DNA of 64,000 nt from positions 32,693 through 96,692 of the forward strand of contig CAZPGE010000004.1 in NCBI GenBank assembly GCA_964586255.1, in the 5' to 3' direction. A program made the translations under genes and the position numbers. Under the pieces are notes generated by a model. It searched no databases, had not been told where the DNA came from, and worked only from the letters and a program-made list of their open reading frames with translations. This DNA is from an uncultured Candidatus Saccharibacteria bacterium. Lineage in GTDB: Bacteria > Patescibacteriota > Minisyncoccia > Phycocordibacterales > UBA2100. Within the stretch, counting starts at the first letter, position 1; each line of letters begins with the position of its first letter. Below are positions 1,992 to 62,150 of this stretch, piece by piece.

Positions 1992-1994
1992 TCT

Positions 1995-3239
1995 ATGAAA
2001 CTCGGCACACCACTACTTCGGTACATAGTCGCGGCCATCATCGTCGTGGTTCTCGGCGGTCTCGGGGGTTGGTACATGTTTATCAATAAGCAAATAGGTT
2101 CTACGGAGGCGCAGGATACCGCGCGCGGGTATGGAGAGGCGGAGACGTTTGGAGGTGGAATCGGGGGCACAATCAACAACCTCGTCGGTGATGTGATTGG
2201 TGGAATACTCAGCAACGACAAGGGGCCGAGTGCTGCGTCTGCACCGAAGCTCTGGCAAATAACACGCACCCCCGTAGCAGGCCATGGCTTCGCGAGTTCG
2301 AGTCCTCGTCTCTATTTCGCAGAACGCGCCTCAGGCAACGTCCTTCTTGCAGACCCCACGACGACAAACGTACAGCGTCTTACCAATACGCTCATTCCCA
2401 AGGTCTTAGAGGCGTACTTCGCGACAGACGGTTCGGTCGTATTGCGCTCTTTAGACGATGACGGGAAGATCCAGTCGTACGCCGCACGAATTGCGACGAG
2501 CACAAGCCCTGCAGCGGGTGACACGCCAAACAAACTGGAGGGTGCATTCCTGCCAGAGGGTATCGTGTCGATGGGAGTGCACTCGACGCCCGACGAGTTG
2601 TTTTTCATCGTGCGGGAGAACAGTGGGTCCGCGGGTATCGTGTCGGGATGGCTCGGTGGAAATCAGAAGCGCACACTCGTATCCGCGCTCTCGGATTGGC
2701 AGGCCATTTTTCTCCAAGATGGCAGCAAATACCTGGTCCAGAAAGCATCGGATGATGTCGCGGGGTATGCATTCAAAATCACCGGGTCCGGGTCCTTGGA
2801 GCGAGTCATGGGGGATTTGCCCGGACTCATCATATTGCCGCGCTCAAACTCGCAGGCGATGCTCTTCAGCACAGCATCAGCCGGCCAGATAGCACTTTTT
2901 GCCCGCGTAAATTCGCAGACTTCTGATGTACGGCTTGCCATCAGGACCCTCGCCGAGAAGTGCGTATGGGCGCCCGATACAAGACTGATTGCCTACTGTG
3001 CAGTGCCGCAAACCGCACCGAGTGGCACCATCCTCCGTGATCGGTACGACGGTAGTGCACACACCGCAGATGCATGGTGGCGCGTCGATGTCTCTGCAAA
3101 TACCGCAGAACAAATATATACACCTGAAATATCGGTGGCGCTCGATGTGGAAAACCCGCAGATAAACAGCGCCGGCACTCACATCGCTTTTATGAATGGG
3201 ACTGACAAGACACTGTGGATGCTAACCCTGAATAAATAG
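1995..3239 (+). CDS. membrane-anchored TolB-like beta-propeller (PD40/WD40-like repeats) protein
   Basis: N-terminal TM helix. Repeated 'SPxL.F..R..G.....D...' and 'GTHIAFMNGTDKTLWML' PD40-like motifs. Lies 4 nt after the previous stop. Confidence 0.45.
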   Translation: MKLGTPLLRYIVAAIIVVVLGGLGGWYMFINKQIGSTEAQDTARGYGEAETFGGGIGGTINNLVGDVIGGILSNDKGPSAASAPKLWQITRTPVAGHGFASSSPRLYFAERASGNVLLADPTTTNVQRLTNTLIPKVLEAYFATDGSVVLRSLDDDGKIQSYAARIATSTSPAAGDTPNKLEGAFLPEGIVSMGVHSTPDELFFIVRENSGSAGIVSGWLGGNQKRTLVSALSDWQAIFLQDGSKYLVQKASDDVAGYAFKITGSGSLERVMGDLPGLIILPRSNSQAMLFSTASAGQIALFARVNSQTSDVRLAIRTLAEKCVWAPDTRLIAYCAVPQTAPSGTILRDRYDGSAHTADAWWRVDVSANTAEQIYTPEISVALDVENPQINSAGTHIAFMNGTDKTLWMLTLNK

Positions 3240-3240
3240 T

Positions 3241-3687
3241 ATGCACGCGCTCCGCATCACGATACAGCTCGCGGTAATCACTCTTGGCGCATGCGCCCTC
3301 GCGCTTCTCAGTGTTGATTTCGCGCACGCACAAGGCAGTTTTGTACCACTCGCACCTGCACCATCAGGCTCGAGATTGGGTCAAATCTACACTTCAAACT
3401 CTCTGACGGGATTCATCAACGGGCTTTTCACGGCAGCCATCGCGGTGGGTGCGATTCTCGCCGTGATGCGACTCGCTTTCGCAGGATACCTCTACATGAC
3501 GACCGATGCTTGGGGCCAAAAGGGAAAGGCGAAAGAGGTGATAGGAGATGTCATTATGGGGCTTCTTCTCCTCCTATCTATTTGGCTCATCTTGAGACAG
3601 ATAAATCCGAAGCTCCTCGACCTCGACATACTACAGAGCCTGAGGCCGACTTCGCAGCTTATTCAGCAAACAGAGAGAGCAACATAG
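3241..3687 (+). CDS. VirB2/TrbC-like pilin-type small membrane protein (signal peptide plus two hydrophobic helices)
   Basis: Signal peptide ending AHA|QG followed by two hydrophobic helices (GLFTAAIAVGAILAVMRLAFAGYLYM; VIGDVIMGLLLLLSIWLIL). This topology is typical of T4SS pilins. It is the last gene of the operon. Confidence 0.4.
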   Translation: MHALRITIQLAVITLGACALALLSVDFAHAQGSFVPLAPAPSGSRLGQIYTSNSLTGFINGLFTAAIAVGAILAVMRLAFAGYLYMTTDAWGQKGKAKEVIGDVIMGLLLLLSIWLILRQINPKLLDLDILQSLRPTSQLIQQTERAT

Positions 3688-3733: not shown

Positions 3734-4243
3734 TTATTCAGCGGAGTACTTGATGACGACACGCCTGTTTCGTCCCTCGCCCTGTGACTCCGTCTTCACG
3801 TTTGGAGCGTCTTGGAGTGTCGTGTGCACAATGAGTCGCTCGTACGCGCTCATTGGAGTGAGTTCTACGTCGTATTGAAATGAACGTGCTCGCTCAGCCA
3901 TCATCAGCGCCTTCGTCTGTATGTCCCGTATCTGTTTGGCCCGGTAGTCGTTGACGTCGATGAGAAACATCGGCGCCTCTTCACCCGCAGGGAGAGGAGC
4001 ACGCTTCTCGACAATCTTTTTCACAAGCATATCAATAGCCTGGATAGTGTCCCCATGCATGCCGATGAGCCGGCGGGCATCATCGGTCTCGATAGAGTAG
4101 ATAGTCTGGCCGGCCATGTCGGACTTCACAATCTTCGAGTATGAAATCCCGAGCGTATCGAGCATTTCTTTGAGGACATCTTCGACTGCATAGGACACTG
4201 CCATATGGTGCGCACTATACCTCGTGAGGCGGTAAATCGGCAA
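3734..4243 (-). CDS. jag: Jag/KhpB RNA-binding protein (KH + R3H domains)
   Basis: R3H/KH-like motifs ('GMHGDTIQAIDMLVKKIV', 'RRVVIKYSAE'). Conserved position downstream of yidC. TTG start with an AGAGGG RBS; an alternative ATG at 4204 is possible. Confidence 0.75.
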   Translation of the reverse strand: MPIYRLTRYSAHHMAVSYAVEDVLKEMLDTLGISYSKIVKSDMAGQTIYSIETDDARRLIGMHGDTIQAIDMLVKKIVEKRAPLPAGEEAPMFLIDVNDYRAKQIRDIQTKALMMAERARSFQYDVELTPMSAYERLIVHTTLQDAPNVKTESQGEGRNRRVVIKYSAE

Positions 4244-4308
4244 TACAAAGCCCTCTTACGGCGTGTTCTAATATCACCCCCCTCCGTCCGCGCTCTAGAG
4301 CGAGAACG

Positions 4309-5037
4309 CTATTTGTTACCCCCGAATCGACGGCCCGAAAGCAGCTCCTGTCCTATCATAAAAAGGTTACTGGTGAGCCAATAGAGTGGCGCTGCAGCTG
4401 AGATGAAGTACGCGATGCCGGCGACCATGACGGGAAGAATGTACCGCGCCTGAAGATCAAACGTGCGTGCCATCTCTGCAGAGAACGATGCCTCAGCCGC
4501 CACCACAGACCCGCGCGGCCCCATAGAGAGTCGCGTGTAGATGAACTGTGAGATGCCCGCAAGTACGGCGAGCACCATACTCTTGCCCGCCATGTCGATG
4601 AGGCCAAGGAACTCCATGTTCACGTTTGCGGGTACCGGAACGAACGCGTAGAGAATATCGGCGTTGATGGTCGGCAATCCGCCGTTGGCGAACACGAAGT
4701 AGAGTCCGAGTAGAACGGGGAGCTGAATGAGGAGGAGAAGGAGCCCCGCAAACGGACTCACTCCACGCTCGCGGTACAGTGCGAAAATTGCTCGACCCTG
4801 TTCTTCCGGCTTGTCTTTGTATTTTTTCTTGAGCTCCTCAATCTCTGGCGCAACACGTTTCATGTCCATCTGCGCCTTGATCGCTTTGCGAGAAAGCGGG
4901 AAGAGAATAAAGCGGACGATGATAGTGACTATGATAACGGCGACACCCATGTCGTGCGTTGGGACCACGTCAACAAAGTACACGAGCGCGTTGTATATCG
5001 GGTCGTACACGACCGTATGGAAGAGAGTGCGTATCAT
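4309..5037 (-). CDS. yidC: membrane protein insertase YidC (short, Gram-positive/CPR-type)
   Basis: Multi-TM protein with YidC/Oxa1 signature. Part of the rpmH-rnpA-yidC-jag synteny. Confidence 0.85.
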   Translation of the reverse strand: MIRTLFHTVVYDPIYNALVYFVDVVPTHDMGVAVIIVTIIVRFILFPLSRKAIKAQMDMKRVAPEIEELKKKYKDKPEEQGRAIFALYRERGVSPFAGLLLLLIQLPVLLGLYFVFANGGLPTINADILYAFVPVPANVNMEFLGLIDMAGKSMVLAVLAGISQFIYTRLSMGPRGSVVAAEASFSAEMARTFDLQARYILPVMVAGIAYFISAAAPLYWLTSNLFMIGQELLSGRRFGGNK

Positions 5038-5070
5038 AGGGTGGGTTGCGGCGTATTGTACCGCCTCGGC

Positions 5071-5400
5071 TTACCGAGCGCTACGGACCTCGCGCAGTAG
5101 TGCCTCGATGTCGTGTGCAAGCTCCTGGTACGTTGCTTTCGCCGCATCTTTCTTTGCAAGAAACAGGTACACGCCAGGTGGCGTCAATTGTGCGCTCTTC
5201 TCAAGCACGGCGCGACATCGGCGCCGAATAAGGTTGCGCGTCACTGCTTTCATGGCGACCTTTTTTGACACGACGCACGCAAACTGTGCACTGCCCGTGC
5301 GCGATGCCGATATCGACACAGAGAAAAAACCGCCATGTAGACGGCGAGGGGAGCGCAGCTCCCTGATCTCGGCGCCCGTGAGGCGGTTTTTCTTTGGCAT
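5071..5400 (-). CDS. rnpA: ribonuclease P protein component
   Basis: Basic ~109-aa protein with an RnpA-like sequence, located immediately downstream of rpmH. Confidence 0.85.
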   Translation of the reverse strand: MPKKNRLTGAEIRELRSPRRLHGGFFSVSISASRTGSAQFACVVSKKVAMKAVTRNLIRRRCRAVLEKSAQLTPPGVYLFLAKKDAAKATYQELAHDIEALLREVRSAR

Positions 5401-5403
5401 CGT

Positions 5404-5544
5404 TTAAACGGAAGCGGAGAGGCGCTTGCGTCCTTTTGCGCGACGGCGGTTCAGAACCTTGCGGCCCACCGTGGTCGTCGTTCGTGAACGGAAGCCGTGC
5501 GCTTTGGCGCGCTTTTGCTTCTTCGGCTGATAGGTTCGTCTCAT
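5404..5544 (-). CDS. rpmH: 50S ribosomal protein L34 (46 aa; below the ORF-track size cut-off)
   Basis: Translation [46 protein letters not shown] matches the L34 consensus. The stop lies 4 nt before the rnpA start. Confidence 0.85.
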
Positions 5545-5822
5545 GTGCGCGACTATACGTTATATAGCGCCAGATTTCAAGCATTTTCACTCCTTACCCA
5601 TCATTGCAAGAGGGGAGGGGTTTCGTGAGGTGTCGCGCAGGCCGACGGGCCGAGCGGCAGCGCTGCGCGAGCACGCGCAGACAGCGACCTCACGAAACCT
5701 CCTCCCGTTTTGCGATGTCCACACCTTGTCCACAGGTTGTAAACATGGTCTCGCGTAGCGCATTCGCTTCCCAGCGCGAGCGACACGCGTATAATGCGTG
5801 AGCTTCGAAGACTAATGTACCT
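5545..5822. promoter_or_regulatory. rpmH/dnaA divergent intergenic region: candidate oriC part with two tandem DnaA-box-like 9-mers, a 13-17 bp inverted repeat, and a TATAAT -10 element for dnaA
   Basis: ATGTCCACA (5715-5723) and TTGTCCACA (5726-5734) resemble TTATCCACA. Inverted repeat GGTTTCGTGAGGT (5619-5631) / ACCTCACGAAACC (5687-5699). TATAAT at 5790-5795, 28 nt upstream of the dnaA ATG. Confidence 0.45.
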
Positions 5823-7175
5823 ATGATGACCAATCGAGAATTATGGCAGAACGCATTGGTCCAAATAGAACTCGGGACGACGCAGGCGTCGTTTAGAACC
5901 TGGTTTCGCAATACTGACATCGCAAATCGTGACGGGGGAGTCGTCCAAGTCGCCGTCCCGTCAAAGATTGTAAAGGAGTGGCTGCTTGAAAAACACCACA
6001 AGCTTGTTTTGAAGGCACTGCGCAGTCTCGACAACACCATCCGCACCGTTGAGTACGTGGTACACCGCTCCGCGCCGAGCGCCGAGCGAAAAGCTCCGCG
6101 CGCCGAGAAGCCCCAAGAGAATGCGTCGTTCGATTTACAATCTCTCTATATAGATAAGCGCGACAACCTGAACCCGCGTTACACTTTTGAGACATTTGTC
6201 GTCGGTCCCTTCAACCAACTCGCTCACGCGGCGGCAAAAGCGGTGCTCGATAGACCCGGCCTCACGTACAATCCTCTCTTTATCTATGGCTCCACCGGGC
6301 ATGGAAAGACACATCTCATACAAGCAGTGGGCAACTACTTCAAGAAAGCGCACGCCAACAAGAAAGTGCTCTATGTCACATCGGAGCGCTTTGCGGTGGA
6401 TTACATCAACTCCGTGCGTGCGGGACGAGCCAACAACTTCAAAGACCAGTACCGTCAGTACGACGTGCTCATCATGGACGACATCCAGTTCATTGCGAAC
6501 ACAGAAAAGACGCAGGAAGAGCTCTTCCACCTCTTCAACGCACTCCACGACAACAACAAACAAATCGTGTTCTCGAGCGATAAACACCCGTCACTTCTCC
6601 CCGGCTTTGAGGAGCGCCTCAAGGGCCGCTTTGCCGCGGGCGTGATTGCTGAGATACCCGAGCCCGACGTGGAGTCACGCATCGCCATCATCAAGGCGAA
6701 GATTGAGCAGCACGGCTTCTCAATCCCTGAAGACATCATCCAATACATTGCAGAGAACGTACGGGGCAACATACGCGAACTCGAGGGGGTACTCAATATG
6801 ATCGTTTGCAAATCGCAGCTCAAGGGAAAGGCAATATCCCACGCCGACGTGCGAGCGCTCATCAAACACAACGTAAAGCCCAATAGAGGTGTCTCTATAG
6901 ACGAGGTGGTCCGCAGGATAGCGCAATACTACGAAGTGCCGGAGAAGAGCATCTACGAAAAGACTCGCAAAAAGGAGGTGGTGAAGCCCCGTCAAATAAT
7001 CATGTACATGCTCCGAGAAGAATTTAGTGTCTCGTACCCGTCGATAGGAGAGAAACTTGGGGGTCGTGACCACACCACCGTCATCCACTCGTGCGAGAAG
7101 ATAAAGGAAGAGATAAAAATGAACAACGCACTCGAGCAAGAACTCGACCACATCCGTACTCTCATCCACGCATAG
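5823..7175 (+). CDS. dnaA: chromosomal replication initiator DnaA
   Basis: AAA+ Walker A 'GSTGHGKTHL', 'VLIMDDIQF', and a C-terminal DNA-binding domain. Confidence 0.95.
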   Translation: MMTNRELWQNALVQIELGTTQASFRTWFRNTDIANRDGGVVQVAVPSKIVKEWLLEKHHKLVLKALRSLDNTIRTVEYVVHRSAPSAERKAPRAEKPQENASFDLQSLYIDKRDNLNPRYTFETFVVGPFNQLAHAAAKAVLDRPGLTYNPLFIYGSTGHGKTHLIQAVGNYFKKAHANKKVLYVTSERFAVDYINSVRAGRANNFKDQYRQYDVLIMDDIQFIANTEKTQEELFHLFNALHDNNKQIVFSSDKHPSLLPGFEERLKGRFAAGVIAEIPEPDVESRIAIIKAKIEQHGFSIPEDIIQYIAENVRGNIRELEGVLNMIVCKSQLKGKAISHADVRALIKHNVKPNRGVSIDEVVRRIAQYYEVPEKSIYEKTRKKEVVKPRQIIMYMLREEFSVSYPSIGEKLGGRDHTTVIHSCEKIKEEIKMNNALEQELDHIRTLIHA

Positions 7176-7471
7176 TGTATGAACACAGCCTTCATTGGTA
7201 TTTCCGTCGATACACAGCGCGGCGTTGTTCGTGCACCGAAAAAAGTCTCTGTATATCCTGTGGAAAACACGGGGAGAGTGGTCGCACAACTCACGAATAA
7301 GTTTGCCGGAAAAGCCATGGCGCGAGTTACCCCCGTTTCATCCCCGCTTCACGCAAGAGTTTTCAACAGGTCACGTACAACTATTTCATCTAGATTCTGC
7401 GCGATATTTCCGACTTGTCCCCGCTATACACAGGACTAATAGTAGTAATAGAATATATAAGTAAAAAGTAT
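7176..7471. promoter_or_regulatory. dnaA-dnaN intergenic region with a DnaA-box-like site and an AT-rich stretch (possible DNA-unwinding element / second oriC module)
   Basis: TGTGGAAAA (7259-7267) is the reverse complement of TTTTCCACA. AT-rich 7380-7470 lies immediately upstream of dnaN. Confidence 0.3.
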
Positions 7472-8569
7472 ATGAAGATAACAACAACAAAAGAAAAACT
7501 TCTTAACGCGATATTGATGGTAGAGAGAATCACAGGAAAAAAAGAATCTCTCCCGATACTTTCTTGTGTTCTTATCGATACGACGAGTGACATAACACTT
7601 CGCGCTACAAATCTTGAAGCCGGTATTGAAGTGACCGTTCCCGGTGAAATATCAGAAAAAGGAGTTGTAGCTGTTTCAGCTACGATACTTTCACAAACTA
7701 TCCGCTCGATAGGTGGCGATAAAATATCGCTCTCAAGCGAAGAGGGGAATCTTCTTATCGAATCTCGCGGGACCAAGACACTTATAAAGGCAGTGCCTCA
7801 TGAGGAGTTCCCTGTGCTCTCAAGTGAATCAGGAAAATCAAACGTCTCTCTTTCCAGAGAGCGACTCATTCACGGTATTCAATCGGTTTCATACGCTGCA
7901 TCACCTTCGATGATTCGGCCGGACCTCGGAAGTATCTATATTTCTATCCAGGATGGTTCGATGGTCTGTGTCGCGACCGATTCGTTTCGTCTCGCCGAGA
8001 AGGTGGTTTCTGAGACCGGTTCTAAGACGTCGGATGAACTCCTTATCCCTCTCAAGCATGCACTCGAGCTCGTCCATGTACTCGAAAAACTCGATGATGA
8101 GAAGATTTCACTCTCGGCCGATGATTCACAGCTTGTTGTTGTGGGCTCCGGGACACGGTTTGTATCTCGTGTGGTCGATGCCACATTCCCCAACTATAAA
8201 GAAATTATTCCGAAAAAGTTTACGACTGAGGCCACAATGCTCAAAAATGACCTTGGTGAGATGCTCCGCAAAGCACGCGTGTTTTCAGGGAATGAGATGC
8301 ACGTGGGCCTCCATGTGTATCCGAAGAAAAAGATTTTTACTGCGACCGCGCGTAGTGCTGATGTAGGTGAGATGTCCGACTCTATCGATGCGGCCCTCTC
8401 AGGAGAGGATCTCGATATCAATTTCCACATAGGATATCTCGCCGACTGCCTGAGCTCTATCGCATCAGATTCTGTGATACTGAGTTTCTCCGGTGCAGGC
8501 CGTCCACTCGTGATTCGTGGTGTTTCGGATAGCAATTTCACATACCTGGTGATGCCACTCAACCGATAG
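7472..8569 (+). CDS. dnaN: DNA polymerase III beta sliding clamp
   Basis: 366 aa from the ATG at 7472, with three-domain clamp-like sequence. The ORF-track start at 7415 is probably an upstream extension. Confidence 0.9.
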   Translation: MKITTTKEKLLNAILMVERITGKKESLPILSCVLIDTTSDITLRATNLEAGIEVTVPGEISEKGVVAVSATILSQTIRSIGGDKISLSSEEGNLLIESRGTKTLIKAVPHEEFPVLSSESGKSNVSLSRERLIHGIQSVSYAASPSMIRPDLGSIYISIQDGSMVCVATDSFRLAEKVVSETGSKTSDELLIPLKHALELVHVLEKLDDEKISLSADDSQLVVVGSGTRFVSRVVDATFPNYKEIIPKKFTTEATMLKNDLGEMLRKARVFSGNEMHVGLHVYPKKKIFTATARSADVGEMSDSIDAALSGEDLDINFHIGYLADCLSSIASDSVILSFSGAGRPLVIRGVSDSNFTYLVMPLNR

Positions 8570-50695: not shown

Positions 50696-50989
50696 ATGGG
50701 TTCTAAACAGATGCGCGCGAGAGCGCAGCGTGCCGCTCGCGTTTTCAAACTTGCCTCGAGCGCCTCGCGCTCGCATATTCTGCTCGTTCTTGCCGAGAAG
50801 TCGGCGTTGCCGGTGCAGCAGATTGCAGACTCTGTGGGCATGACACATTCGGCGGTCAGTCACCAGCTCGGGCTTCTCTCGAGTGCGAAAATCGTAGCCT
50901 TCAAAAAGGAGGGAAGGATAGTGCGCTATTCCATTGCGTCGAATGCGGAAGCGAAGGCGCTTGTGAAATTCGTCCGGGCCCTTGCTTGA
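50696..50989 (+). CDS. ArsR/SmtB-family transcriptional regulator
   Basis: HTH 'LPVQQIADSVGMTHSAVSHQLGLL'. Confidence 0.75.
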   Translation: MGSKQMRARAQRAARVFKLASSASRSHILLVLAEKSALPVQQIADSVGMTHSAVSHQLGLLSSAKIVAFKKEGRIVRYSIASNAEAKALVKFVRALA

Positions 50990-51016
50990 CTCGGGACCCC
51001 AAGCGGATTACTATAT

Positions 51017-51040
51017 TTTAAACCCCGCGAGGGGTTTTAA
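51017..51040. terminator. bidirectional intrinsic terminator (TTTTAAA-CCCC-gcga-GGGG-TTTTAAAA)
   Basis: Short GC stem flanked by A/T tracts, lying between arsR and secE. Confidence 0.45.
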
Positions 51041-51067
51041 AATTGGCTTAAAATATCATTAATTTCT

Positions 51068-51328
51068 ATGGGACTCGGACAATATCTCAAAGATACGCAG
51101 GCAGAGCTTCGTCATGTGGCATGGCCGACGCGTGCGCAGACGATTATCTTCACCGTGCTTGTGGCACTGGTCTCTGTCTTTGTTGCCCTGTACCTTGGTC
51201 TTTTTGACTACGTGTTCACCACGAGCCTCACCAACTTCCTCGGCACACTCCCTGCAGCAGAGGTCGCGCCTGCGGCCACGTCTTCACCCGTTGTCGACGT
51301 AATCGTCGGTACGAGCACAATCCAGTAA
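51068..51328 (+). CDS. secE: preprotein translocase subunit SecE (with a C-terminal extension)
   Basis: 'VAWPTRAQTIIFTVLVALVSVFVALYLGLFD' with a single TM. Immediately upstream of nusG. Confidence 0.8.
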   Translation: MGLGQYLKDTQAELRHVAWPTRAQTIIFTVLVALVSVFVALYLGLFDYVFTTSLTNFLGTLPAAEVAPAATSSPVVDVIVGTSTIQ

Positions 51329-51332
51329 ATAT

Positions 51333-51878
51333 ATGGCTAAGCAAACATACGGTTCAGAGAGAAAGTGGTATGCGGTACACACGTATTCAGGATATGAGGA
51401 CGCGGTAGCACGCAACTTGAAGCAGCGCATCGATTCTTTCGGCATGGGAGAGCAAATCTTCAATGTCGTAGTCCCGATTGAAAAGAAAATAAAAATCAAG
51501 AACGGCCGCAAGACTGAAGCTAAAGAGAAGATATTCCCCGGATACGTACTCGTCGACATGATAGCGACCGACGATGCGTGGAGCGTGGTGCGCAACACGC
51601 CGCAGGTTACCGGCTTCGTCGGTACCGCCAATCAGGCTGTCCCTCTCTCGCAGGAGGAAGTAGATAAGATTCTCAAGAGAAGCGAAGGCGATACCGTCCG
51701 CCATGCGATAGATCTTGCGGAAGGAGATGCAGTCATTATTATCGACGGCCCGTTCAAGGATCTCGAGGGTAAAGTAGGCGAGATTGACGAAGAGCGCGGA
51801 AAAGTTAAAGTGCTCGTACCTATGTTCGGTCGTGAGACTCCTGTGGAGCTCGAAGCCGACCAGGTGCAGCGCGTATAA
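51333..51878 (+). CDS. nusG: transcription termination/antitermination factor NusG
   Basis: NGN domain '[15 protein letters not shown]' and KOW '[18 protein letters not shown]'. Confidence 0.9.
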
Positions 51879-51885
51879 ATCATGT

Positions 51886-52311
51886 ATGGCAAAAGAAGTC
51901 ACAAAAATAATTAAGCTCCAGATTGAAGCAGGTAAAGCGACTCCGGCTCCTCCGGTCGGTACGGCTCTTGGTCCCGCGGGCGTCAACATCGGTGAATTCG
52001 TCAACCAGTTCAACACCCTGACGCGTCCGCTCATGGGTTCGACGCTCCCTGTCGTCCTCTCAGTGTACAAGGACCGTACCTTTAGCTTCATCGTGCGAAA
52101 GCCGCCAGCGTCTCGCGCCATCCTTAAGATGCTTGGTCTCGAGAAGGGTTCTCAGCGCCCACACACGGACAAGGTGGGGAAGCTTACGAACGCGCAGCTC
52201 GAGCAGCTCGCCAACGACAAGATGGAAGATCTCAATGCGACTGATATCGAACAGGCGAAGAAGATTATCGCCGGGACTGCCCGATCAATGGGGATTGACG
52301 TGCAAAAGTAA
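51886..52311 (+). CDS. rplK: 50S ribosomal protein L11
   Basis: '[27 protein letters not shown]' matches L11. Start at the internal ATG (51886). Confidence 0.9.
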
Positions 52312-52412
52312 CGTCAATCGACCTTTCGAGATATTTTTGAGCGAATGCGAAAAAAATATCCGAAAGGTGTACTGTTCCTGTAAGGAATCGACACTCAGAA
52401 ATAGAAAGAAAA

Positions 52413-52440
52413 GCCCCGGACAGACCGGGGCCTTTCTTTT
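52413..52440 (+). terminator. intrinsic terminator after rplK (GCCCCGG-acaga-CCGGGGC then CTTTCTTTT)
   Basis: Hairpin plus T-tract preceded by an A-run. No rplA follows. Confidence 0.5.
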
Positions 52441-52482
52441 GCGCTTGCGCTGGAGGCTCGCAGCTGTTTTAGTGAGTCGTAC

Positions 52483-53115
52483 ATGAGCAAACTTATCGTC
52501 TTCGAAGGCATAGACGGCGCTGGCAAGGCCACGCAAGTAAAACTCTTGGCCAAACGGCTTCGTGCACAGGGAAAGCATGTGACCGTTTTCGCTTCGCCAC
52601 GATACGACCTCCCCACGGGAAAGCTCGTGCGTTCCGCGCTCCACGGCGCGTTCGGAGACTTTGTAGGACTCTCCCCGTATTTCTCGGCGCTCCCGTACCT
52701 CGTGGATTTCGCCGCATGGCGAGATGAAATCCAAGACGCGCTCAAAAAAGGGGTCGTGATTTGCGACAGGTATGTGCCGAGCACAGTCGCGTATCACAGC
52801 GCCAAGCTCTCAGGGAAGAAGACGGCGGATTTCGTCCGCTTTGTCGAAGATATTGCGTACCTCCGGCTGAAGCTCCCCAAGCCGAGTCTCGTCGTATACC
52901 TGCATGTACCGGTAGCGGAAGCTCAGAAACTCACTCGCACGCGAAAGCGAAAGCGCGACCAGCATGAAAGAGATGACTCATACCAAAAGCGCGTGGCAGC
53001 GATGTATGCGGCGCTCTGCAAGAGGCCCCATTGGAAGTCGGTCGACTGTATTGAAGCTGGCGCGATGCGCTCACCCGAGGCTATCCATGAGGAAATCATA
53101 AGACTCACGAGATAA
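52483..53115 (+). CDS. tmk: thymidylate kinase
   Basis: 'IVFEGIDGAGKATQ' P-loop and 'DRYVPSTVAYH' DRY-like motif. Confidence 0.85.
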   Translation: MSKLIVFEGIDGAGKATQVKLLAKRLRAQGKHVTVFASPRYDLPTGKLVRSALHGAFGDFVGLSPYFSALPYLVDFAAWRDEIQDALKKGVVICDRYVPSTVAYHSAKLSGKKTADFVRFVEDIAYLRLKLPKPSLVVYLHVPVAEAQKLTRTRKRKRDQHERDDSYQKRVAAMYAALCKRPHWKSVDCIEAGAMRSPEAIHEEIIRLTR

Positions 53116-53139: not shown

Positions 53140-54804
53140 ATGAATGTCCGCGAGAGTTTGCATGTAAAGTTGGCAGAGGCATTGAGGGCCGCCGGTGTTG
53201 AGGAGACTGTCGTGCATGTGGAGCATCCAGCGGATTTTTCCCATGGGGATTATGCGACTGGAGCGGCGCTCCAGTACGCCAAACACGTCGGTCTTACGCC
53301 GAGAGGGCTCGCTGAGCGCATCGTCGCTGCTATCGCCGATGTGCCAGGCGTTGCTTCTATAGAGATAGCGGGCCCTGGCTTCATCAATTTTAGACTTTCG
53401 GGCGACGCGCTCGCTGAGTCGGTAGTCGCAGCAAGGGAGAGCGACATGTGGGGCTCTATAGACACGTACGGCGGCAAAAAAGTGATGGTTGAGTATACCG
53501 ACCCGAATCCGTTTAAGGAGTTCCACATCGGACATCTCATGAGCAATGCCATCGGAGAATCGCTCTCTCGACTTTTTCAATTTTCCGGCGCAGAAGTGCG
53601 CCGCGCCAACTACCAGGGGGATGTGGGTCCGCATGTCGCAAAAGCGATATGGGGAATCAAGAGACTCTCGCTCGACCCAGGAAGTGCCGCATCGCTCGGT
53701 ATGGCATACGCAGCGGGAGCGAAAGCATACGAAGAAGATGCAGTCGCAAAAGAAGAAATCGAAGCGATAAACAAAGCCGTATACGAACACACCGATGCGG
53801 AAATCGACGATATCTATAACAAGGGTCGCGAAGCGTCCCTGAAGCACTTTGAAGAGCTGTATGAAATGCTCGGTACGAAATTCGACCATTACTTTTTTGA
53901 GAGCGAGACTGCGATTCGTGGAGTAGCTCTTGTCCGCTCACGCCCAGACATATTTGTGGAGAGTGACGGCGCCACAGTGTACAAGGGGGAGGACGAAGGG
54001 TTGCACACACGAGTATTTCTCACCTCCAAGGGGTTGCCCACGTACGAGACCAAGGACCTCGGCCTCGCACAGATGAAGGCCGAAGTATGGGATGCGGACA
54101 TGCTTGTGACGGTCACTGCAAATGAACAGAAAGATTATTTCAAGGTCATGCTCGCCGCTATGCACAAAGTCCTGCCCGACGTCGCCGCAAAAGTGGTACA
54201 CGTGACCCACGGCATGATGCGGTTCGCCGAGGGGAAGATGTCGTCGCGTACCGGCAATGTGGTCACGGGCGAGTCACTTTTAAACGAACTTATTGAAGTC
54301 GCCAAAGTCCGCGCACAAGAGAGTCGCGCAGAAAGCCCCGAGAGGCTCGCGAGAGATGTCGCGGTAGCTGCCATCAAATATCAAATTCTCAAGCAGGGCT
54401 CGGGAAAAGATATTATTTTCGACCGCGAGCGAGCACTTTCCGTGGATGGTGACTCAGGACCGTATGTGCAGTACGCGCACGCACGTACACATCAAATAGT
54501 GGAGAAAGCGTTGGTGTCGAATGTGGTGCCGTATTTCGATGCTGTCGCGCCAACCCATGACATAGCGCGCCTCCTACATCGCTTTCCAGAAATCGTGGAG
54601 TATGCGACAGAACAAAAAGAGCCACATATCGTGACGAGCTACCTCATAGAGCTCGCGGCGGCGTTCAATAGCTGGTATGCACAAGAACAGATACTCGACG
54701 GTACGCCTGCGGCGGCTCACAAGGTGGCTCTCACCGATGCGGTACGCCGCACGCTCAAAAATGGGCTTTGGATACTCGGCATGCCGGCGCCGGAGAAGAT
54801 GTAG
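53140..54804 (+). CDS. argS: arginine--tRNA ligase
   Basis: Class I 'HIGH'-like 'NPFKEFHIGHLMSNAIGE'. The C-terminal DALR anticodon-binding domain contains 'KMSSRTG'. Confidence 0.9.
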   Translation: MNVRESLHVKLAEALRAAGVEETVVHVEHPADFSHGDYATGAALQYAKHVGLTPRGLAERIVAAIADVPGVASIEIAGPGFINFRLSGDALAESVVAARESDMWGSIDTYGGKKVMVEYTDPNPFKEFHIGHLMSNAIGESLSRLFQFSGAEVRRANYQGDVGPHVAKAIWGIKRLSLDPGSAASLGMAYAAGAKAYEEDAVAKEEIEAINKAVYEHTDAEIDDIYNKGREASLKHFEELYEMLGTKFDHYFFESETAIRGVALVRSRPDIFVESDGATVYKGEDEGLHTRVFLTSKGLPTYETKDLGLAQMKAEVWDADMLVTVTANEQKDYFKVMLAAMHKVLPDVAAKVVHVTHGMMRFAEGKMSSRTGNVVTGESLLNELIEVAKVRAQESRAESPERLARDVAVAAIKYQILKQGSGKDIIFDRERALSVDGDSGPYVQYAHARTHQIVEKALVSNVVPYFDAVAPTHDIARLLHRFPEIVEYATEQKEPHIVTSYLIELAAAFNSWYAQEQILDGTPAAAHKVALTDAVRRTLKNGLWILGMPAPEKM

Positions 54805-55152: not shown

Positions 55153-58100
55153 ATGACCCACATGTCCGAATCTCAGAAAAGCGACGTATCTAAGCGCGAA
55201 GAGGCTACACTCGCGTTTTGGAAAGAACACCAGATTTTCGAAAAATCGGTCAAAAAACACGCGCCTTTGGGCGAATATGTCTTTTACGACGGGCCACCAT
55301 TTGCTACAGGACTCCCGCACTATGGGCATATCGTGGCATCGGTCATAAAAGATGTGATACCTCGCTACTTCACGATGCGAGGCTACAGCGTGCCGCGCGT
55401 GTGGGGCTGGGACTGTCACGGACTTCCGATTGAAAATATCGTTGAAAAAGAGCTTGGTTTCAAACACAAGAAAGACATCTTGGAGATGGGTGTCGCGAAG
55501 TTCAACGAGCTCTGCCGCTCGAAAGTATTCACGTATGCGGATGAGTGGAAGAAGGTAATCCCGCGTATCGGTCGCTGGGCAGATATGGAGAAGCCGTATT
55601 TCACGATGAGCCGCGACTTTATGGAAAGCGTGTGGTGGGCTTTCAAACAGATATACGACAAAGGTCTCGTCTACGAAGACTATCGCTCAATGCATATCTG
55701 TCCGCGCTGCGAGACGACGCTTTCACAAAGCGAAGTCGCAGAAGGGTACAAAGATGTGAAAGACCTTGCTGTCACAGCGAAATTTAAGATAAAGAACCCG
55801 GAAAAGATTGGTTTGTCTGGAGATGTGTACATCCTTGCGTGGACGACAACGCCATGGACGCTGCCTGGCAATGTCGCGCTCGCCGTTGGGAATGAAATTG
55901 AATACGTAAAAGTTACCAATAAAGGTGCACATTCAACTTCAGTAACGATGGAATTGAAAAGCGGTGAAGTAACGAGACAAGTAAATCTTTCACCTGGAGT
56001 GTACATAATGTCTAAGGATTTCTTCCAGAGGAACGTCTATTCAAATGCGGGCGTCATGGAAGTTCGATACATGCTCGGAGATCCCGAAGAGACAAAACGT
56101 AACGTTCTAAAATATGCAAATGATTTTCAAGGATTTGCGGCGGTGTATGGCGTTGAGATTGTTAAAGGTGTGTCACTTGCAGGTCTCGCGTACGAACCAC
56201 TTTTCGACAGTTACTCTTCTGATACCAACCTCAAAAACAAAGAGAATGGCTGGAAAGTGTATGCAGCGGATTTCGTTACGACTGAAGATGGTACGGGTGT
56301 GGTCCATATCGCGCCCGCGTTTGGTTCCGACGACATGGCGCTCGGGAAAAAAGAGAATCTCCCGTTTGTGCAGCACGTCAGGATGGACGGTATCATAAGG
56401 CCCGAGGTGAAGGAGCTTGCCGGTCTTTCGGTAAAGCCGATAGATGATATTCAGTCGACGGATGTTGCAGTTATCAAATATCTGGCGGAAAAGGGACTGC
56501 TTTTTTCAAAGGAAAAATACGAGCACTCGTATCCGCATTGTTGGCGTTGCGATACGCCACTCATCAACTACGCGACCTCGTCGTGGTTTGTGAAAATCGA
56601 AGACCAGAAATCTGCACTTCTCAAAAATGCCGCGCCCATCAACTGGTCTCCAGCGCACATCAAAGAGGGGCGGTGGGGCAAGTGGCTCGAAGGTGCGCGT
56701 GACTGGTCTATATCACGCCAGCGCTTCTGGGCGAGCGTGATACCGATATGGGTCTGCGAAAAGTGCAAAGCGAAGCGGGTATTTGGCAGTGCCACAGAGC
56801 TCGAGGAAGCCAGTGGGAAAAAGATAGACGACTTGCACAAACATATCGTCGATGAGATTTCGTTTTCTTGCTCAGAGTGCGATGGCGTGATGCGACGCAT
56901 CCCCGATGTGCTCGATACGTGGTTTGACTCAGGCTCGATGCCGTATGGCCAGGCGCACTATCCCTTTGAGAACAAAGCTGCTTTTGAGAAGACGTTTCCG
57001 GCGCAATTCATCGCAGAAGGACAGGATCAGACACGCGCATGGTTTTACTACCTGCACGTGCTCTCCACGTCTATCTTCGGCAGGAATGCGTTTCAAAACG
57101 TAATCGTGAACGGCATCGTGCTCGCCGAGGATGGCAAGAAAATGTCAAAGCGCTTGCAAAACTACCCTGACCCGATGGAGATCGTGGAAAAATACGGCGC
57201 AGATGCGCTCCGCTATTACATGCTCTCGTCACCCGTCGTACAGGCTGAGAATCTCAATTTTTCTGAAAAAGGAGTTGATGAGGCGCTCAAAAAGAATATC
57301 GGACGTCTCGGCAACGTGCTCGCGTTCTACCAGCTGTACGCCGATGGTACGGTGCGCGATTGGAAGAGTGAGCACGTACTCGATACATGGATTATCGCGC
57401 GACTTGATTCGCTTATCGAAGAAGTCACCAAGGCGTTTGATGCGTACCAGCTCGACGCGGCGACGCGCCCGCTCGCACTCTTCATCGATGACCTCTCTGT
57501 ATGGTATCTGCGCCGCTCTCGCGACCGCTTTAAAGAAGATGGGGATGATAAAAAGGCGGCGCTCGCGACGCTGCGTTTTGTACTGCATAGGCTCTCACTC
57601 GTGATGGCGCCGTCGATGCCTTTCTTCGCAGAGCACCTCTTTCAGGCCGTGCGAGAGGGTGAGGATGAGGAGAGTGCACACCTTGCCTCATGGCCATCGG
57701 TCTCGTACCAGCCACGCTTCTGGGCGAAGCTCTTTGGGGGAAAGGACTCACGCTTGGTGCTCGAGGCGATGCAGGTTGCACGCAATGTCGTATCAAGCGC
57801 TCTTGAAGAGCGCGATACGGCTGGCATAAAAGTACGTCAGCCGCTCTCCAAGCTCTCCATACCATCTTCCCTCAAACTCGCGGAGGAGTACCTCGCAATC
57901 ATTGCCGACGAGGTGAATGTGAAAAAAGTGGAGAGGCTTGGCGATGCTATAAGACTTGATGTTGAGATTACCGACGAATTGAAAGAGGAGGGAGTTGTGA
58001 GGGATACTATTCGCGAAATACAGGCATTTCGTAAAGAGCAGGGACTCAAGCCAGGAACATCTGCCACATATACGTTTGTAAAAGACGAACCTCGACGGAG

Positions 58101-58167
58101 TGTTATAGAGAAGAATCGCACGAAGATAGAAGACACGACATCGACAATGATTGTGTTTGTGGAATAG
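55153..58167 (+). CDS. ileS: isoleucine--tRNA ligase, type 2 (eukaryote/archaea-like form)
   Basis: 'GPPFATGLPHYGHI' (type-2 HIGH region), 'KMSKRLQNYPDP' (KMSKS), CP1 editing domain. 1004 aa. Confidence 0.9.
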   Translation: MTHMSESQKSDVSKREEATLAFWKEHQIFEKSVKKHAPLGEYVFYDGPPFATGLPHYGHIVASVIKDVIPRYFTMRGYSVPRVWGWDCHGLPIENIVEKELGFKHKKDILEMGVAKFNELCRSKVFTYADEWKKVIPRIGRWADMEKPYFTMSRDFMESVWWAFKQIYDKGLVYEDYRSMHICPRCETTLSQSEVAEGYKDVKDLAVTAKFKIKNPEKIGLSGDVYILAWTTTPWTLPGNVALAVGNEIEYVKVTNKGAHSTSVTMELKSGEVTRQVNLSPGVYIMSKDFFQRNVYSNAGVMEVRYMLGDPEETKRNVLKYANDFQGFAAVYGVEIVKGVSLAGLAYEPLFDSYSSDTNLKNKENGWKVYAADFVTTEDGTGVVHIAPAFGSDDMALGKKENLPFVQHVRMDGIIRPEVKELAGLSVKPIDDIQSTDVAVIKYLAEKGLLFSKEKYEHSYPHCWRCDTPLINYATSSWFVKIEDQKSALLKNAAPINWSPAHIKEGRWGKWLEGARDWSISRQRFWASVIPIWVCEKCKAKRVFGSATELEEASGKKIDDLHKHIVDEISFSCSECDGVMRRIPDVLDTWFDSGSMPYGQAHYPFENKAAFEKTFPAQFIAEGQDQTRAWFYYLHVLSTSIFGRNAFQNVIVNGIVLAEDGKKMSKRLQNYPDPMEIVEKYGADALRYYMLSSPVVQAENLNFSEKGVDEALKKNIGRLGNVLAFYQLYADGTVRDWKSEHVLDTWIIARLDSLIEEVTKAFDAYQLDAATRPLALFIDDLSVWYLRRSRDRFKEDGDDKKAALATLRFVLHRLSLVMAPSMPFFAEHLFQAVREGEDEESAHLASWPSVSYQPRFWAKLFGGKDSRLVLEAMQVARNVVSSALEERDTAGIKVRQPLSKLSIPSSLKLAEEYLAIIADEVNVKKVERLGDAIRLDVEITDELKEEGVVRDTIREIQAFRKEQGLKPGTSATYTFVKDEPRRSVIEKNRTKIEDTTSTMIVFVE

Positions 58168-58757: not shown

Positions 58758-59195
58758 ATGATAACCATTTCTCAACTTACAGAAGCGACAGCGAACTCTA
58801 TTGCCGAACTTAATACGCTCATGCGCGAACTCCGCACCGAACAATCCGGCGATGCCATTAACAGTGTCGACGACATGACGCTGCTGCTGAGCGATAAAAA
58901 TATTGTCGTCATGACGGTGAAAGACGACGAAAAGATTGTTGGTGTTGCCACTCTGTATATAGTGCCCAAAATCGGGAAGACCGTCGCGTACATCGAAGAT
59001 GTCGTCGTGAGTAGCGCGTATCGTGGACAGGGGTTGGGCGAGAAACTCGTGCGCAAAGTCATCGAAACCGCGAGAAGTAGGCATGTCAAAAGTGTAGGGC
59101 TTACCTCGCGTCCGGCACGAGAAGCAGCAAATAAGCTCTACCAAAAGATTGGCTTCAATCGCAAGGAGACGAACGTCTACAAGCTCGCTCTCTAA
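58758..59195 (+). CDS. GNAT-family N-acetyltransferase
   Basis: Acetyl-CoA binding motif 'VVVSSAYRGQGLGEKLVRKVIETAR'. Confidence 0.75.
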   Translation: MITISQLTEATANSIAELNTLMRELRTEQSGDAINSVDDMTLLLSDKNIVVMTVKDDEKIVGVATLYIVPKIGKTVAYIEDVVVSSAYRGQGLGEKLVRKVIETARSRHVKSVGLTSRPAREAANKLYQKIGFNRKETNVYKLAL

Positions 59196-59199
59196 CCAT

Positions 59200-60354
59200 A
59201 TGGCGCGGGTGAAGATAAGCGAATATAAGGCGAAGAAGATTCTCTTTGGGGAGGCGTACGATGGTCTACAGTTGCGCACAGGCGAGTCCATGAATATCCC
59301 GGATGGACACTGGGTGGCGAAAGTCGACCAGGGCGTCAAGAAGCGCTTCAAGCAAGGGCTTGTCGCTGTCGACAAACCGAAGGCTGAGATACTCACTGCA
59401 ATCGCCGAGTGGGAGAAAAAAGGATTCACGCAATTCGTCCTTGAGCCGTATTTTGAACACGAGGAGACAGAGGAGCAGTACCTCTCTCTCGAGAGAGTCC
59501 GAGGAGGAGTGCGCGTGCTGCATGCGTCGGGAGGAGGGATCAATATAGAGGAGCACCCTGAAGCGGTCGGACGTTACATTATATCTGAGGAAGCTGATAT
59601 CGCAGGAATTGCGAAAAAGACCAAGGTTCCGGAGTCTTTCCTGTCGCGCCTGTACGCAATATTCAATGCGAGCCACTTTTCATTCTTGGAGATTAATCCG
59701 CTCATCGTGCGAAGTGAAGACGTGTATGCGCTCGATGCGGCCGTGCTCGTCGACAGTGCGGCGGAGTTTTTCGTTTCTGGCATCTGGAGCGACGATGACG
59801 TCGTGAAGACAAAAGCGAAACATGTCGCCGAGGAGCGCGTAGAAGCGCTTGCGGCGACCACACCCGCGGCTCTCAAGCTCTCCGTAATCAATCCCAACGG
59901 CGCGCTCTTCTTCCTGCTCTCAGGTGGAGGCGGAAGTATCGTAATTGCTGATGAGGCACAGCTTGAGGGTGTCGGACACCTCATAGCGAATTACGGAGAA
60001 TACAGCGGCGGTCCGACTCGCGAAGAAACATACCTGTATTCAAAAGAGATAATCGGCATGATGATTGAATCGAAGGCGCACAAGAAAGCGCTCGTGATTG
60101 CGGGCGGGGTCGCAAATTTTACCGATGTGAAAAAGACTTTTCTCGGTATCATAGATGCGCTCAAAGAGCGCTCGGAAGAATTGCGGACGCAGGGTACAAA
60201 GATATTTGTTCGGCGTGGTGGTCCCAATGAAAAGGTGGGCTTGCAGCTCATGCGCGATTTCTTACAAAACGAAGGGCTTCTAGGCGCAGTCTACGGCTCG
60301 GACGTCGTCATTACACAAGCGGTGGACGATGCCATTCAATATATCCGCATATGA
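59200..60354 (+). CDS. aclB: ATP-citrate lyase beta subunit (ATP-grasp, citrate-binding)
   Basis: Strong similarity to the ACLY N-terminal half: 'FSFLEINPLIV...VYALDAAVLVD', 'ANYGEYSGGPTREETYLYSKEI', 'IAGGVANFTDVKKTF', 'IFVRRGGPNEKVGLQLM'. ATG at 59200; the ORF track extends upstream. Confidence 0.8.
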   Translation: MARVKISEYKAKKILFGEAYDGLQLRTGESMNIPDGHWVAKVDQGVKKRFKQGLVAVDKPKAEILTAIAEWEKKGFTQFVLEPYFEHEETEEQYLSLERVRGGVRVLHASGGGINIEEHPEAVGRYIISEEADIAGIAKKTKVPESFLSRLYAIFNASHFSFLEINPLIVRSEDVYALDAAVLVDSAAEFFVSGIWSDDDVVKTKAKHVAEERVEALAATTPAALKLSVINPNGALFFLLSGGGGSIVIADEAQLEGVGHLIANYGEYSGGPTREETYLYSKEIIGMMIESKAHKKALVIAGGVANFTDVKKTFLGIIDALKERSEELRTQGTKIFVRRGGPNEKVGLQLMRDFLQNEGLLGAVYGSDVVITQAVDDAIQYIRI

Positions 60355-62150
60355 AAACTATACTTGAAGAAGTGAGAGCGGGTGCAGACGGAATCCTCGT
60401 CGTCGGAAATCATCCGCAGATTGTGCAGGCGATTCTCGATTTCGATTACTTGGCAAGCAAGGAGAGCCCTTCGGTCGTCGGAGTTATCTCGGGTACACGC
60501 AAAGCGCAAAAGTTCTTTTACGGTACGGGAGAAGTGCTCGTACCGTGCTTCGGCAGTGTTCGTTTGATGCCTGAGACGCTGCGACCGCGTGTGAAATGGA
60601 TGCTTAACGCACAGTCGGGTCGGCGTACCTTCGAGTCGACCGTCGCCTTCTTTGAGACTTTTCCCGACGCACTCGGAGGTCACTTGTTTGCGGAAAACGT
60701 GCCGGAGATTCATGCGACCGAATTAATACGCCGTTTCGGAAAAAAATATGTCATCGCGGGACCGTCCGGCGTGGGCATCCTCGTGTCCGGTGCACTCAAG
60801 CTAGGTGCGATAGGCGGTACCGACGCGTCGCAAATACGAGCGAGCAAGCTCGCATCGCGGGGCTCTGTCGCCGTCGTATCGACTTCAGGGGGCATGACCA
60901 ACGAACTTATTCGTGCGGTCTCGGGTGCTGGAAAACGCGTGTCATTCTCGATATCGATAGGCGGAGACCGGTTCCCAGTGACAGGTCTCTCTGACGTGCT
61001 CCGCTTGGCTGAGAGCGACGTTGATACAAAAGCCATCGTCTATTTCGGGGAGCTCGGTGGCTCTGACGAATACGAGATAGTGGAGATGCTTGAGAAAAAA
61101 GAGCTGACGAAACCCATAATTTGTTACATTGCGGGAGTTATCGACGAAGCATTCGATGAGCACATGCAGTTTGGACACGCGAAGGCGCTCGTGGCTACAA
61201 AGGACCAAAGTGCGCGCGCGAAGCGAAGCGCTCTCGCGTCGGCTGGTGCCACGGCGCCCGAGACATTCCCCGGGTTTCTCAAGGCACTTACTGAGCTGCC
61301 GCTTCCGGATATTCGTGATACCGTCGTGGATATGGATCCACTTGAGAATCGTAAAGCGAGCATCCTTTCGACGAGAGAGATAGTTGATTTGGATACAGTG
61401 CCTGTTTTTGTACAAGCAGGTGCACTCGTAAAGCAAAAAGAAAATGCATTTGCGGGGGCGACGATGCAGGCTCTTCTCGGGCATGAAGTGTCGCCTGAGA
61501 CTGCTGCATTTGTAGAAAATATATTTGAACTCCTTATCGACCATGGGGGCCATGTCTCCGGCGCAGTCAATACGATGGTGAGTGCTCGCGCAGGAAAGGA
61601 CATGGTGTCGTCGCTCGCATCAGGTCTCCTTACGATAGGTCCACGCTTTGGCGGCGCGGTCAATGAAGCGGCGCGTGCATGGCTCGAGGGCAGCGAATCG
61701 GCCGTGCCCGCGATGGAGTATGTGGAGAAAAAGACTCGTGCGGGAGCACTCCTGAGCGGCATTGGCCACCGCAAATACCGCGTAGGGATTCCTGATCCGC
61801 GTGTTGCAGCGCTTTCAGAGTTTGCATCGCTGCTCAAAAAGCATCCATACTACGATTTTGCACGCGAAGTGGAGAAGGTGACGACCGGGAAGAACGGCAA
61901 CCTCATACTCAATGTCGATGGTGTTATGGCCGCGCTCCTTCTCGACATGCTCGCCGAGAAAGAAGGCGTATCAAAAGAAGAGCTTCACGAGCTTGTGGAT
62001 GCGGAATTTTTCAACGCACTCTTCATAATTCCGCGATCTGTGGGCTTTATCGCTCATTTTCTCGAACAGAAACGCAACGACGAAGGGCTCTTCCGTCTTC
62101 CTGACGAGCTCCTCTTTGAGAAGAAAAGCGAAAAAAAGAAGAAGAATTAG
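60351..62150 (+). CDS. aclA: ATP-citrate lyase alpha subunit (CoA-binding + phosphohistidine domain + citrate-synthase-like C-terminal domain)
   Basis: 'STSGGMTNE' (SucD-like), phospho-His loop 'QFGHAKALV', C-terminal 'SGIGHRKYRVGIPDPRV' (citrate-synthase-like). Start overlaps the aclB stop (ATGA). Confidence 0.8.
   Translation: MKTILEEVRAGADGILVVGNHPQIVQAILDFDYLASKESPSVVGVISGTRKAQKFFYGTGEVLVPCFGSVRLMPETLRPRVKWMLNAQSGRRTFESTVAFFETFPDALGGHLFAENVPEIHATELIRRFGKKYVIAGPSGVGILVSGALKLGAIGGTDASQIRASKLASRGSVAVVSTSGGMTNELIRAVSGAGKRVSFSISIGGDRFPVTGLSDVLRLAESDVDTKAIVYFGELGGSDEYEIVEMLEKKELTKPIICYIAGVIDEAFDEHMQFGHAKALVATKDQSARAKRSALASAGATAPETFPGFLKALTELPLPDIRDTVVDMDPLENRKASILSTREIVDLDTVPVFVQAGALVKQKENAFAGATMQALLGHEVSPETAAFVENIFELLIDHGGHVSGAVNTMVSARAGKDMVSSLASGLLTIGPRFGGAVNEAARAWLEGSESAVPAMEYVEKKTRAGALLSGIGHRKYRVGIPDPRVAALSEFASLLKKHPYYDFAREVEKVTTGKNGNLILNVDGVMAALLLDMLAEKEGVSKEELHELVDAEFFNALFIIPRSVGFIAHFLEQKRNDEGLFRLPDELLFEKKSEKKKKN

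Follow-up and report, generated by a model that had tools for sequence, protein, structure and literature searches.

What takes the place of rplA when it does not follow rplK, and what has become of ribosomal protein L1? The question is raised by a 64,000 nt stretch of DNA, termed here the window, that carries the gene for ribosomal protein L11. As in the canonical secE-nusG-rplK-rplA-rplJ-rplL(-rpoB-rpoC) cluster of Escherichia coli, secE, nusG and rplK are adjacent and on the same strand. However, the cluster in the window ends at rplK. A predicted terminator and the unrelated genes tmk, argS and ileS come next, and rplA, rplJ and rplL are not within 10 kb. The spacer that follows rplK also contains a structured sequence that overlaps the rplK stop codon.

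Gene order and source of the locus

The initial annotation described a secE-nusG-rplK order that stops after L11 and continues with tmk, argS and ileS. Gene identities obtained from Pfam and NCBIfam profile searches are the same:

51068-51328, + strand: secE (PF00584, E 2.8e-15; TIGR00964)
51333-51878, + strand: nusG (TIGR00922, 194 bits)
51886-52311, + strand: rplK, ribosomal protein L11, 141 aa (TIGR01632, 180 bits; PF03946, PF00298)
52483-53115, + strand: tmk, dTMP kinase (PF02223, TIGR00041)
53140-54804, + strand: argS (TIGR00456, 356 bits)
55153-58167, + strand: ileS (PF00133, E 3e-137)

The gap between rplK and tmk is 171 nt, and the segment originally singled out, 51886-52482, consists exactly of rplK and this spacer. 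The rplK start lies only 7 nt from the end of nusG, which suggests that rplK is co-transcribed with secE-nusG. Past ileS, the open reading frame listing and profile searches show recO, a GNAT gene and two ATP-citrate-lyase-like genes. The last two are adjacent (59149-62150) and display ATP-citrate-lyase/citryl-CoA-type domains, Citrate_synth_N and Citrate_bind in one gene and Ligase_CoA and Citrate_synt in the next. Genes of this type are unexpected in a metabolically reduced Parcubacterium.

'Parcubacteria group bacterium Athens0416_74' (GCA_007375785.1) and the window encode the same L11 sequence (100% identity). Among named organisms, Candidatus Kaiserbacteria and Paceibacterota MAGs come closest, with 72-83% identity in L11 and up to 99% in NusG. 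Kaiserbacteria are listed as c__Paceibacteria; o__UBA9983_A in the supplementary genome table of PMC12641178. As placed by similarity and shared synteny, the source is a Kaiserbacteria-like member of the Paceibacteria (Parcubacteria, CPR). Translation signals are in keeping with this placement. A Shine-Dalgarno-like 4-mer is present at -18 to -4 in 5 of 46 window gene starts (11%, with start codons assigned approximately) versus 16% of random windows, i.e., there is no Shine-Dalgarno enrichment upstream of the 46 genes. A published overlap of lineages that lack the anti-Shine-Dalgarno motif with those that lack uL1 agrees with this (PMC9297842).

A scan with L11, with one genome taken per GTDB species, yielded 80 loci, 78 of the Parcubacteria type and two outgroups (L076 and L081). 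Across the 78 loci the order SIMPL-(arsR)-secE-nusG-rplK-(tmk)-argS-ileS-recO is conserved as a whole or in parts, and SIMPL-secE-nusG-rplK followed by (tmk-)argS-ileS-recO can serve as a quick synteny marker of the lineage. In about ten relatives argS begins 12-28 nt after rplK without a terminator between them, which indicates that the end of the operon is not fixed across the lineage. At the other side of rplK, three loci (L012, L026 and L038) have 2-2.7 kb between nusG and rplK; the tight 7-nt coupling is thus not universal in the lineage.

Several other parts of the window and its flanks may be mentioned. A typical origin neighborhood is found at 3734-8569, with jag (R3H) and yidC on the minus strand, then dnaA (5823-7175) and dnaN (7472-8569). 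Judged from this gene neighborhood, the replication origin is probably near 5.1-5.8 kb of the window. Adjoining the origin region is a same-strand run of genes (19-3687) with weak type-IV-secretion/conjugation-like matches (PrgI, TraC-like, TraG/VirB4-type P-loop ATPase and T4SS pilin); its other open reading frames are without Pfam match, and the run reaches ~8 kb further upstream (L086 1-11693). No rRNA genes are detected in the window by Rfam cmscan. About 9-10 kb past the right end of the window (L088 19422-21361), rpsF-ssb-rpsR is followed by a 193-aa open reading frame without a Pfam match. The usual occupant of this slot is rplI (L9), and the reading frame may encode a divergent L9 or else an unrelated protein.

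The fate of rplA

With L1, L10 and L7/L12 probes, tblastn finds no match in the 64-kb window, and a small HMM search in all six frames finds none of the three in the window or in the 10-kb extensions on either side, which belong to the 178.8-kb source contig. The probes are E. coli and Thermus sequences plus two outgroup sequences, and they detect all four positive controls, although a very divergent L1 might escape. Two of the controls are the outgroups L076 and L081, which display an L11-L1-L10-L12 order. The other two, L289 and L290, are from other organisms and were obtained via an L12 search; here the order is rpmG-(secE)-nusG-rplK-rplA-rplJ-rplL, with rpoB-rpoC next in one of them.

The break is a property of the lineage. 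Within 10 kb of rplK, none of the 78 related species loci has rplA, rplJ or rplL, and no weak matches appear in either the probe search or the six-frame HMM search. Metagenomes add ~45 rplK loci from the lineage, and L1 is not found at these either. The spacers after rplK, in the window and 89 loci, show no rplA remnant with tblastn or the L1 HMM, even at E ≤ 10, the outgroups aside. The absence of rplJ and rplL from this position as well shows that the ancestral cluster was split after rplK, a rearrangement that certainly took place whatever the fate of rplA.

L10 and L7/L12 are indispensable proteins, so that rplJ-rplL must be situated elsewhere. An IMG/VR scan with an L12 alignment did not find the rplJ-rplL locus of the L1-less lineage and yielded nothing but lone L12 homologs. 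When the L12 alignment was used in a protein search, all matches were from Nitrospirota. A search seeded with the L270 rplL fragment gave mostly truncated proteins, and the two contigs that were looked up display the canonical order. The lone L12 homologs in IMG/VR are probably phage-borne. About a dozen IMG/VR contigs classified as viral (L090-L109), up to 529 kb in length, encode full-length L7/L12 homologs, and genes for L10, L11 and L1 are not adjacent to these.

The absence of L1 is a documented trait in this part of the tree. The OD1-L1 group was named for rpL1 missing in all its members (PMC5220378, citing Brown et al. 2015). Tsurumaki et al. found uL1 to be missing in a Parcubacteria subgroup and confirmed this on complete genomes (PMC9297842). 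The uL1-less lineages largely overlap those without the anti-Shine-Dalgarno motif (PMC9297842). Paceibacteria have been described as without rplA and der, yet 23S rRNA helix 78 (H78) is kept and helices 76-78 are retained (PMC12641178). The organism described here shares with uL1-lacking Parcubacteria (OD1-L1/Paceibacteria) its phylogenetic neighborhood, the rplA-free rplK end and the absence of Shine-Dalgarno motifs, and there is no difference within the features compared (placement, rplK neighborhood and Shine-Dalgarno usage).

An alternative is that rplA was relocated together with rplJ-rplL to another part of the genome, in which case the locus records a rearrangement and not a loss. The cluster was certainly split, with rplJ and rplL gone from the rplK end as well, and the L1 search in the source genome covered the window plus 20 kb, i.e., ~84 kb of an estimated ~1-Mb genome. 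Nevertheless, relocation is improbable: no L1-like open reading frame or fragment is present in ~2 Mb of related loci, and the three independent surveys report rplA-less genomes in the lineage, complete ones included (PMC5220378, PMC9297842, PMC12641178). On this lineage evidence, it is very probable that L1 is absent from the genome. The initial annotation had left L1 as either encoded elsewhere or absent and had pointed out that a loss would fit a Parcubacteria subgroup; both the placement and the lineage-wide break support the latter. The break after rplK in an L1-less lineage is real and is an already-known trait of OD1-L1/Paceibacteria. The finding adds one more genome to this documented Paceibacteria trait and offers no new biology by itself.

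An artefactual rplK-tmk junction from assembly or binning, e.g., in a chimeric contig, would be conceivable for a metagenome assembly as source, but this is virtually excluded, and indeed already refuted, by the recurrence of the junction in four assemblies that were made independently for this species and by an equal gene order in dozens of related species and metagenome contigs. An identical L11 is encoded in five independent assemblies (three ENA metagenome assemblies, NCBI GCA_007375785.1 and one from Logan). Four of the five run on into tmk and the fifth contig stops 121 nt past rplK. It is this recurrence that shows that the junction did not arise in assembly.

In E. coli, L1 autoregulates the L11 operon via a leader. 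The 7-nt gap between nusG and rplK, unlike the E. coli L11 operon, includes no separate leader for an L1 repressor and is too short to accommodate an L1-binding leader such as that of E. coli. The sequence of events proposed is that the ancestral secE-nusG-rplK-rplA-rplJ-rplL cluster was split right after rplK in this lineage, with rplA most likely lost from the whole genome and rplJ-rplL relocated elsewhere. rplK would then probably be read from the secE-nusG transcript, without an L1-controlled leader.

Predicted terminator and three-hairpin element after rplK

The initial annotation placed a strong terminator after rplK (52413-52440). Such a signal is borne out by a terminator scan and by folding, but the spacer had been taken as a terminator only, and a structured element that overlaps the rplK stop codon had been missed. 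The features of the spacer are:

52291-52389, + strand: three-hairpin element, ~97 nt (covariance model R1, 96.3 bits, E 2e-19)
52384-52404, + strand: relic in-frame copy of the rplK 3' end, GGA ATC GAC ACT CAG AAA TAG (sequence reading)
52405-52441, + strand: predicted intrinsic terminator, with an A-tract, a GC stem at 52413-52431 and a U-rich tail (terminator scan and fold)

The terminator stem (52413-52431) consists of 7 bp, all GC, with a 5-nt loop, and can be extended to 15 pairs (52405-52439). The hairpin is followed by CTTTCTTTTG; the tail is also given as CUUUCUUUUG. This is a GC-rich stem-loop plus U tract, downstream of the gene and on the same strand, as expected for an intrinsic terminator. 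The 177-nt spacer has a folding energy of -64 kcal/mol, with z = -5.1 relative to 200 shuffles. Compensatory changes are seen in the terminator stem of two close strains (L002 and L003), and ~20 relatives have a hairpin and T-run at the same place with differing stem sequences. The secE-nusG-rplK transcript probably ends at 52405-52441, and its mRNA would carry the three-hairpin element before the terminator.

The element begins within rplK. The first stem, P1, is formed by pairing of 52293-52300 (GATTGACG, last rplK codons) with 52312-52319 (CGTCAATC), and the P1 loop (52301-52311) holds the TAA stop of rplK; the last rplK codons, GIDVQK, and the stop codon are thus within the hairpin. The long hairpin P2 (52322-52367), in which one A is bulged, is separated from P3 (52374-52388) by the junction GUACUG; this junction and the closing G.U pair of P3 are invariant. 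Copies follow the general pattern GGUGAG-P1-CGCAAGACC-P2-AAGGUGUACWG-P3-U, and their median length is 97 nt (~85-105 nt). The core AAGGUGUAC-G does not vary, its base-paired positions included.

Several lines of evidence support the fold. The architecture, with compensatory changes, is common to the window and to L021, L025, L063, L073 and L084, where L11 identity is 58-79%. In a MAFFT alignment of 36 sequences, 88% of cells pair compared with 39-49% when the partners are slid, 26 of the 32 pairs change on both sides, and none of 500 shuffles reaches the observed values. The covariance model R1 finds 122 copies at E ≤ 1e-3 in the listed element-bearing loci and no match in 1.27 Mb of unrelated viral loci. 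Among the 110 distinct sequences found by the model, the paired fraction of cells is 89% and covariation is present at 30 of 32 pairs, in an alignment that is fitted to the model and leans towards structure. G.U pairs exceed A.C pairs by 94 to 40, or by 188 to 40 when the invariant closing pair is included. This excess indicates that it is the sense strand that folds, either as RNA or as single-stranded DNA.

The relic that follows the element reads GIDTQK*, compared with GIDVQK* at the actual rplK end. The same layout of element followed by relic is found after rplK in L021, L063, L073 and L084 and in many metagenome loci. In L021, L188, L202 and L261 the downstream copy encodes an end close to the DSDL* that is typical of the family, and the end joined to rplK departs from it. 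These ends suggest insertion of the element into the rplK 3' end, with a downstream shift of the original last codons. A repetitive and possibly mobile element would thus have landed in the rplK 3' end, with the displaced original last codons surviving as the relic at 52384-52404.

Taken as a whole, the locus is likely to represent the 3' end of a Paceibacteria secE-nusG-rplK unit in which the cluster was broken after rplK, rplA was most likely lost and the element was inserted. The element over the rplK stop codon may matter more than the L1 break, and it is the part that deserves follow-up.

Only one copy of the element is present in the window and its extensions (covariance model R1). Rfam 15 has no match to it in the window (cmscan, gathering threshold), and at E ≤ 10 the region 50900-52600 gives only tRNAs or sub-threshold, terminator-like noise. 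In 20 element loci outside rplK, cmscan finds only tRNAs and one 16S rRNA gene. A published description of the three-hairpin element was not found in the literature searched.

Several known RNA classes and mechanisms were considered for the element. Hammerhead, twister, pistol and hatchet ribozymes give no Rfam match, nor does a T-box or other leader for tmk-argS-ileS. An L1-binding site does not apply, with no L1 in the lineage and the element 3' of rplK. Integron attC sites are set aside for the absence of R'/R'' core-like sequences (by eye). Translational bypass or readthrough to the second GID...stop copy is rejected, the copy being in frame in the window and out of frame in L084. Closing of a three-way junction with the downstream copy is impossible in L063, where the stems of neighboring units are non-complementary.

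Copies, contexts and probable nature of the element

An exact-pattern scan finds the core AAGGTGTACWGYWYYYGTARRRDRT in at least 120 stretches of JGI metagenome contigs, relative to a rough chance expectation of ~5. Most of the listed copies are next to unrelated genes. Copies not at rplK adjoin tRNA genes; others are found after gatB and after genes for a 2-hydroxyacid dehydrogenase, a ZIP transporter and a methyltransferase, and before msrA. One copy follows a 5S-rRNA-like sequence (flank read by eye). Several contigs have 2-4 copies. L063 displays three tandem units of two sequence types, and L237 has three copies with related 60-70-nt spacers between them.

One possible explanation is that the element is a cis-regulatory 3'-UTR RNA of rplK, e.g., one bound by L11 or another protein that replaces the lost L1 control of L11 synthesis. 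Among the matches listed (at least 120 in total), ~45 lie exactly at the rplK stop codon, with the core 55-60 nt past it. In the rplK copies L11 codons make up P1, with covariation between stem and codons, and the invariance of the paired core suggests sequence-specific recognition. The rplK share is, however, inflated by a search pattern that was derived from rplK copies, and with the covariance model the element is at rplK in only ~7 of the 78 related species loci. Most copies are by unrelated genes (tRNAs, gatB, msrA, the ZIP transporter and others), and these many unrelated contexts make a role as rplK regulator unlikely. We know of no evident resemblance of the element to the L11-binding site of 23S rRNA beyond a GUAA-type loop. 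If the element were regulatory after all, it would bear on how ribosomal protein genes are controlled after loss of the L1 repressor.

The distribution of copies points instead to a repetitive structured element that is probably mobile. Flanking duplications are variable in size, from ~9 to ~70 nt, and are significant in 18-33% of copies; 18% are above the 99th percentile of a mismatched-flank control. In L233 a 46-nt copy of the msrA start flanks the element and in L190 a 28-nt copy of the tRNA-Gln 3' end does so, and tRNA 5' parts are duplicated at the element in L250 and L235. In L200, 24 codons that follow the element repeat the final 22 codons of gatB in diverged form. One complete gene copy survives in each of these examples. 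Insertions near gene ends may survive because the target is duplicated. All-against-all clustering of open reading frames in the 120 metagenome loci listed reveals no recurring transposase-, RT- or nuclease-like neighbor.

These features allow comparisons with known small repeats. REP/BIME, ERIC/IRU and MITEs (Correia, RUP) are likewise short, multi-copy, hairpin-rich and mostly intergenic just after genes, and small bacterial repeats are also sometimes tandem and patchy among close relatives. The element differs from REP, ERIC and MITE sequences in that it is not bounded by terminal inverted repeats or by a target duplication of fixed short length, its flanking duplications being variable and often long. 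Its fold is specific to one strand and includes an invariant single-stranded junction, and no transposase gene is seen at the loci. It does not classify as a MITE: its ends, GGUGAG... and ...GGAAU, are not inverted repeats and the flank duplications vary.

The recently described group I introns in tRNA, rRNA and protein genes of Patescibacteria (PMC13011429) are different and much larger. In common with the element are the host group, the sites in or next to tRNA and protein genes (PMC13011429) and a first stem that pairs with upstream 'exon' sequence, as in P1 of a group I intron. However, at ~97 nt the element is much smaller than a group I core, it has no Rfam group I match, and the neighboring gene is always intact on one side, so splicing is not required. 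A group II intron is rejected on the same grounds of small size, no Rfam match and intact neighboring genes.

A tentative proposal, somewhat less likely than not, is that the element might represent an undescribed Paceibacteria family that multiplies within and between genomes by insertion near gene ends and duplicates ~9-70 nt of target, such that the gene is kept intact. Spread would possibly be through an RNA or single-stranded intermediate. If this is correct, the mode of spread differs from those known for MITEs or REPs in bacteria. The genomes of Patescibacteria are tiny and contain little non-coding DNA, and a many-copy element of ~100 nt is therefore unexpected in them; if mobile, it would constitute a new kind of small bacterial repeat. 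Further positions of the element are L063 10406-10700, L073 4932-5031 and 10406-10506, L084 9645-9742, and loci L169-L288.
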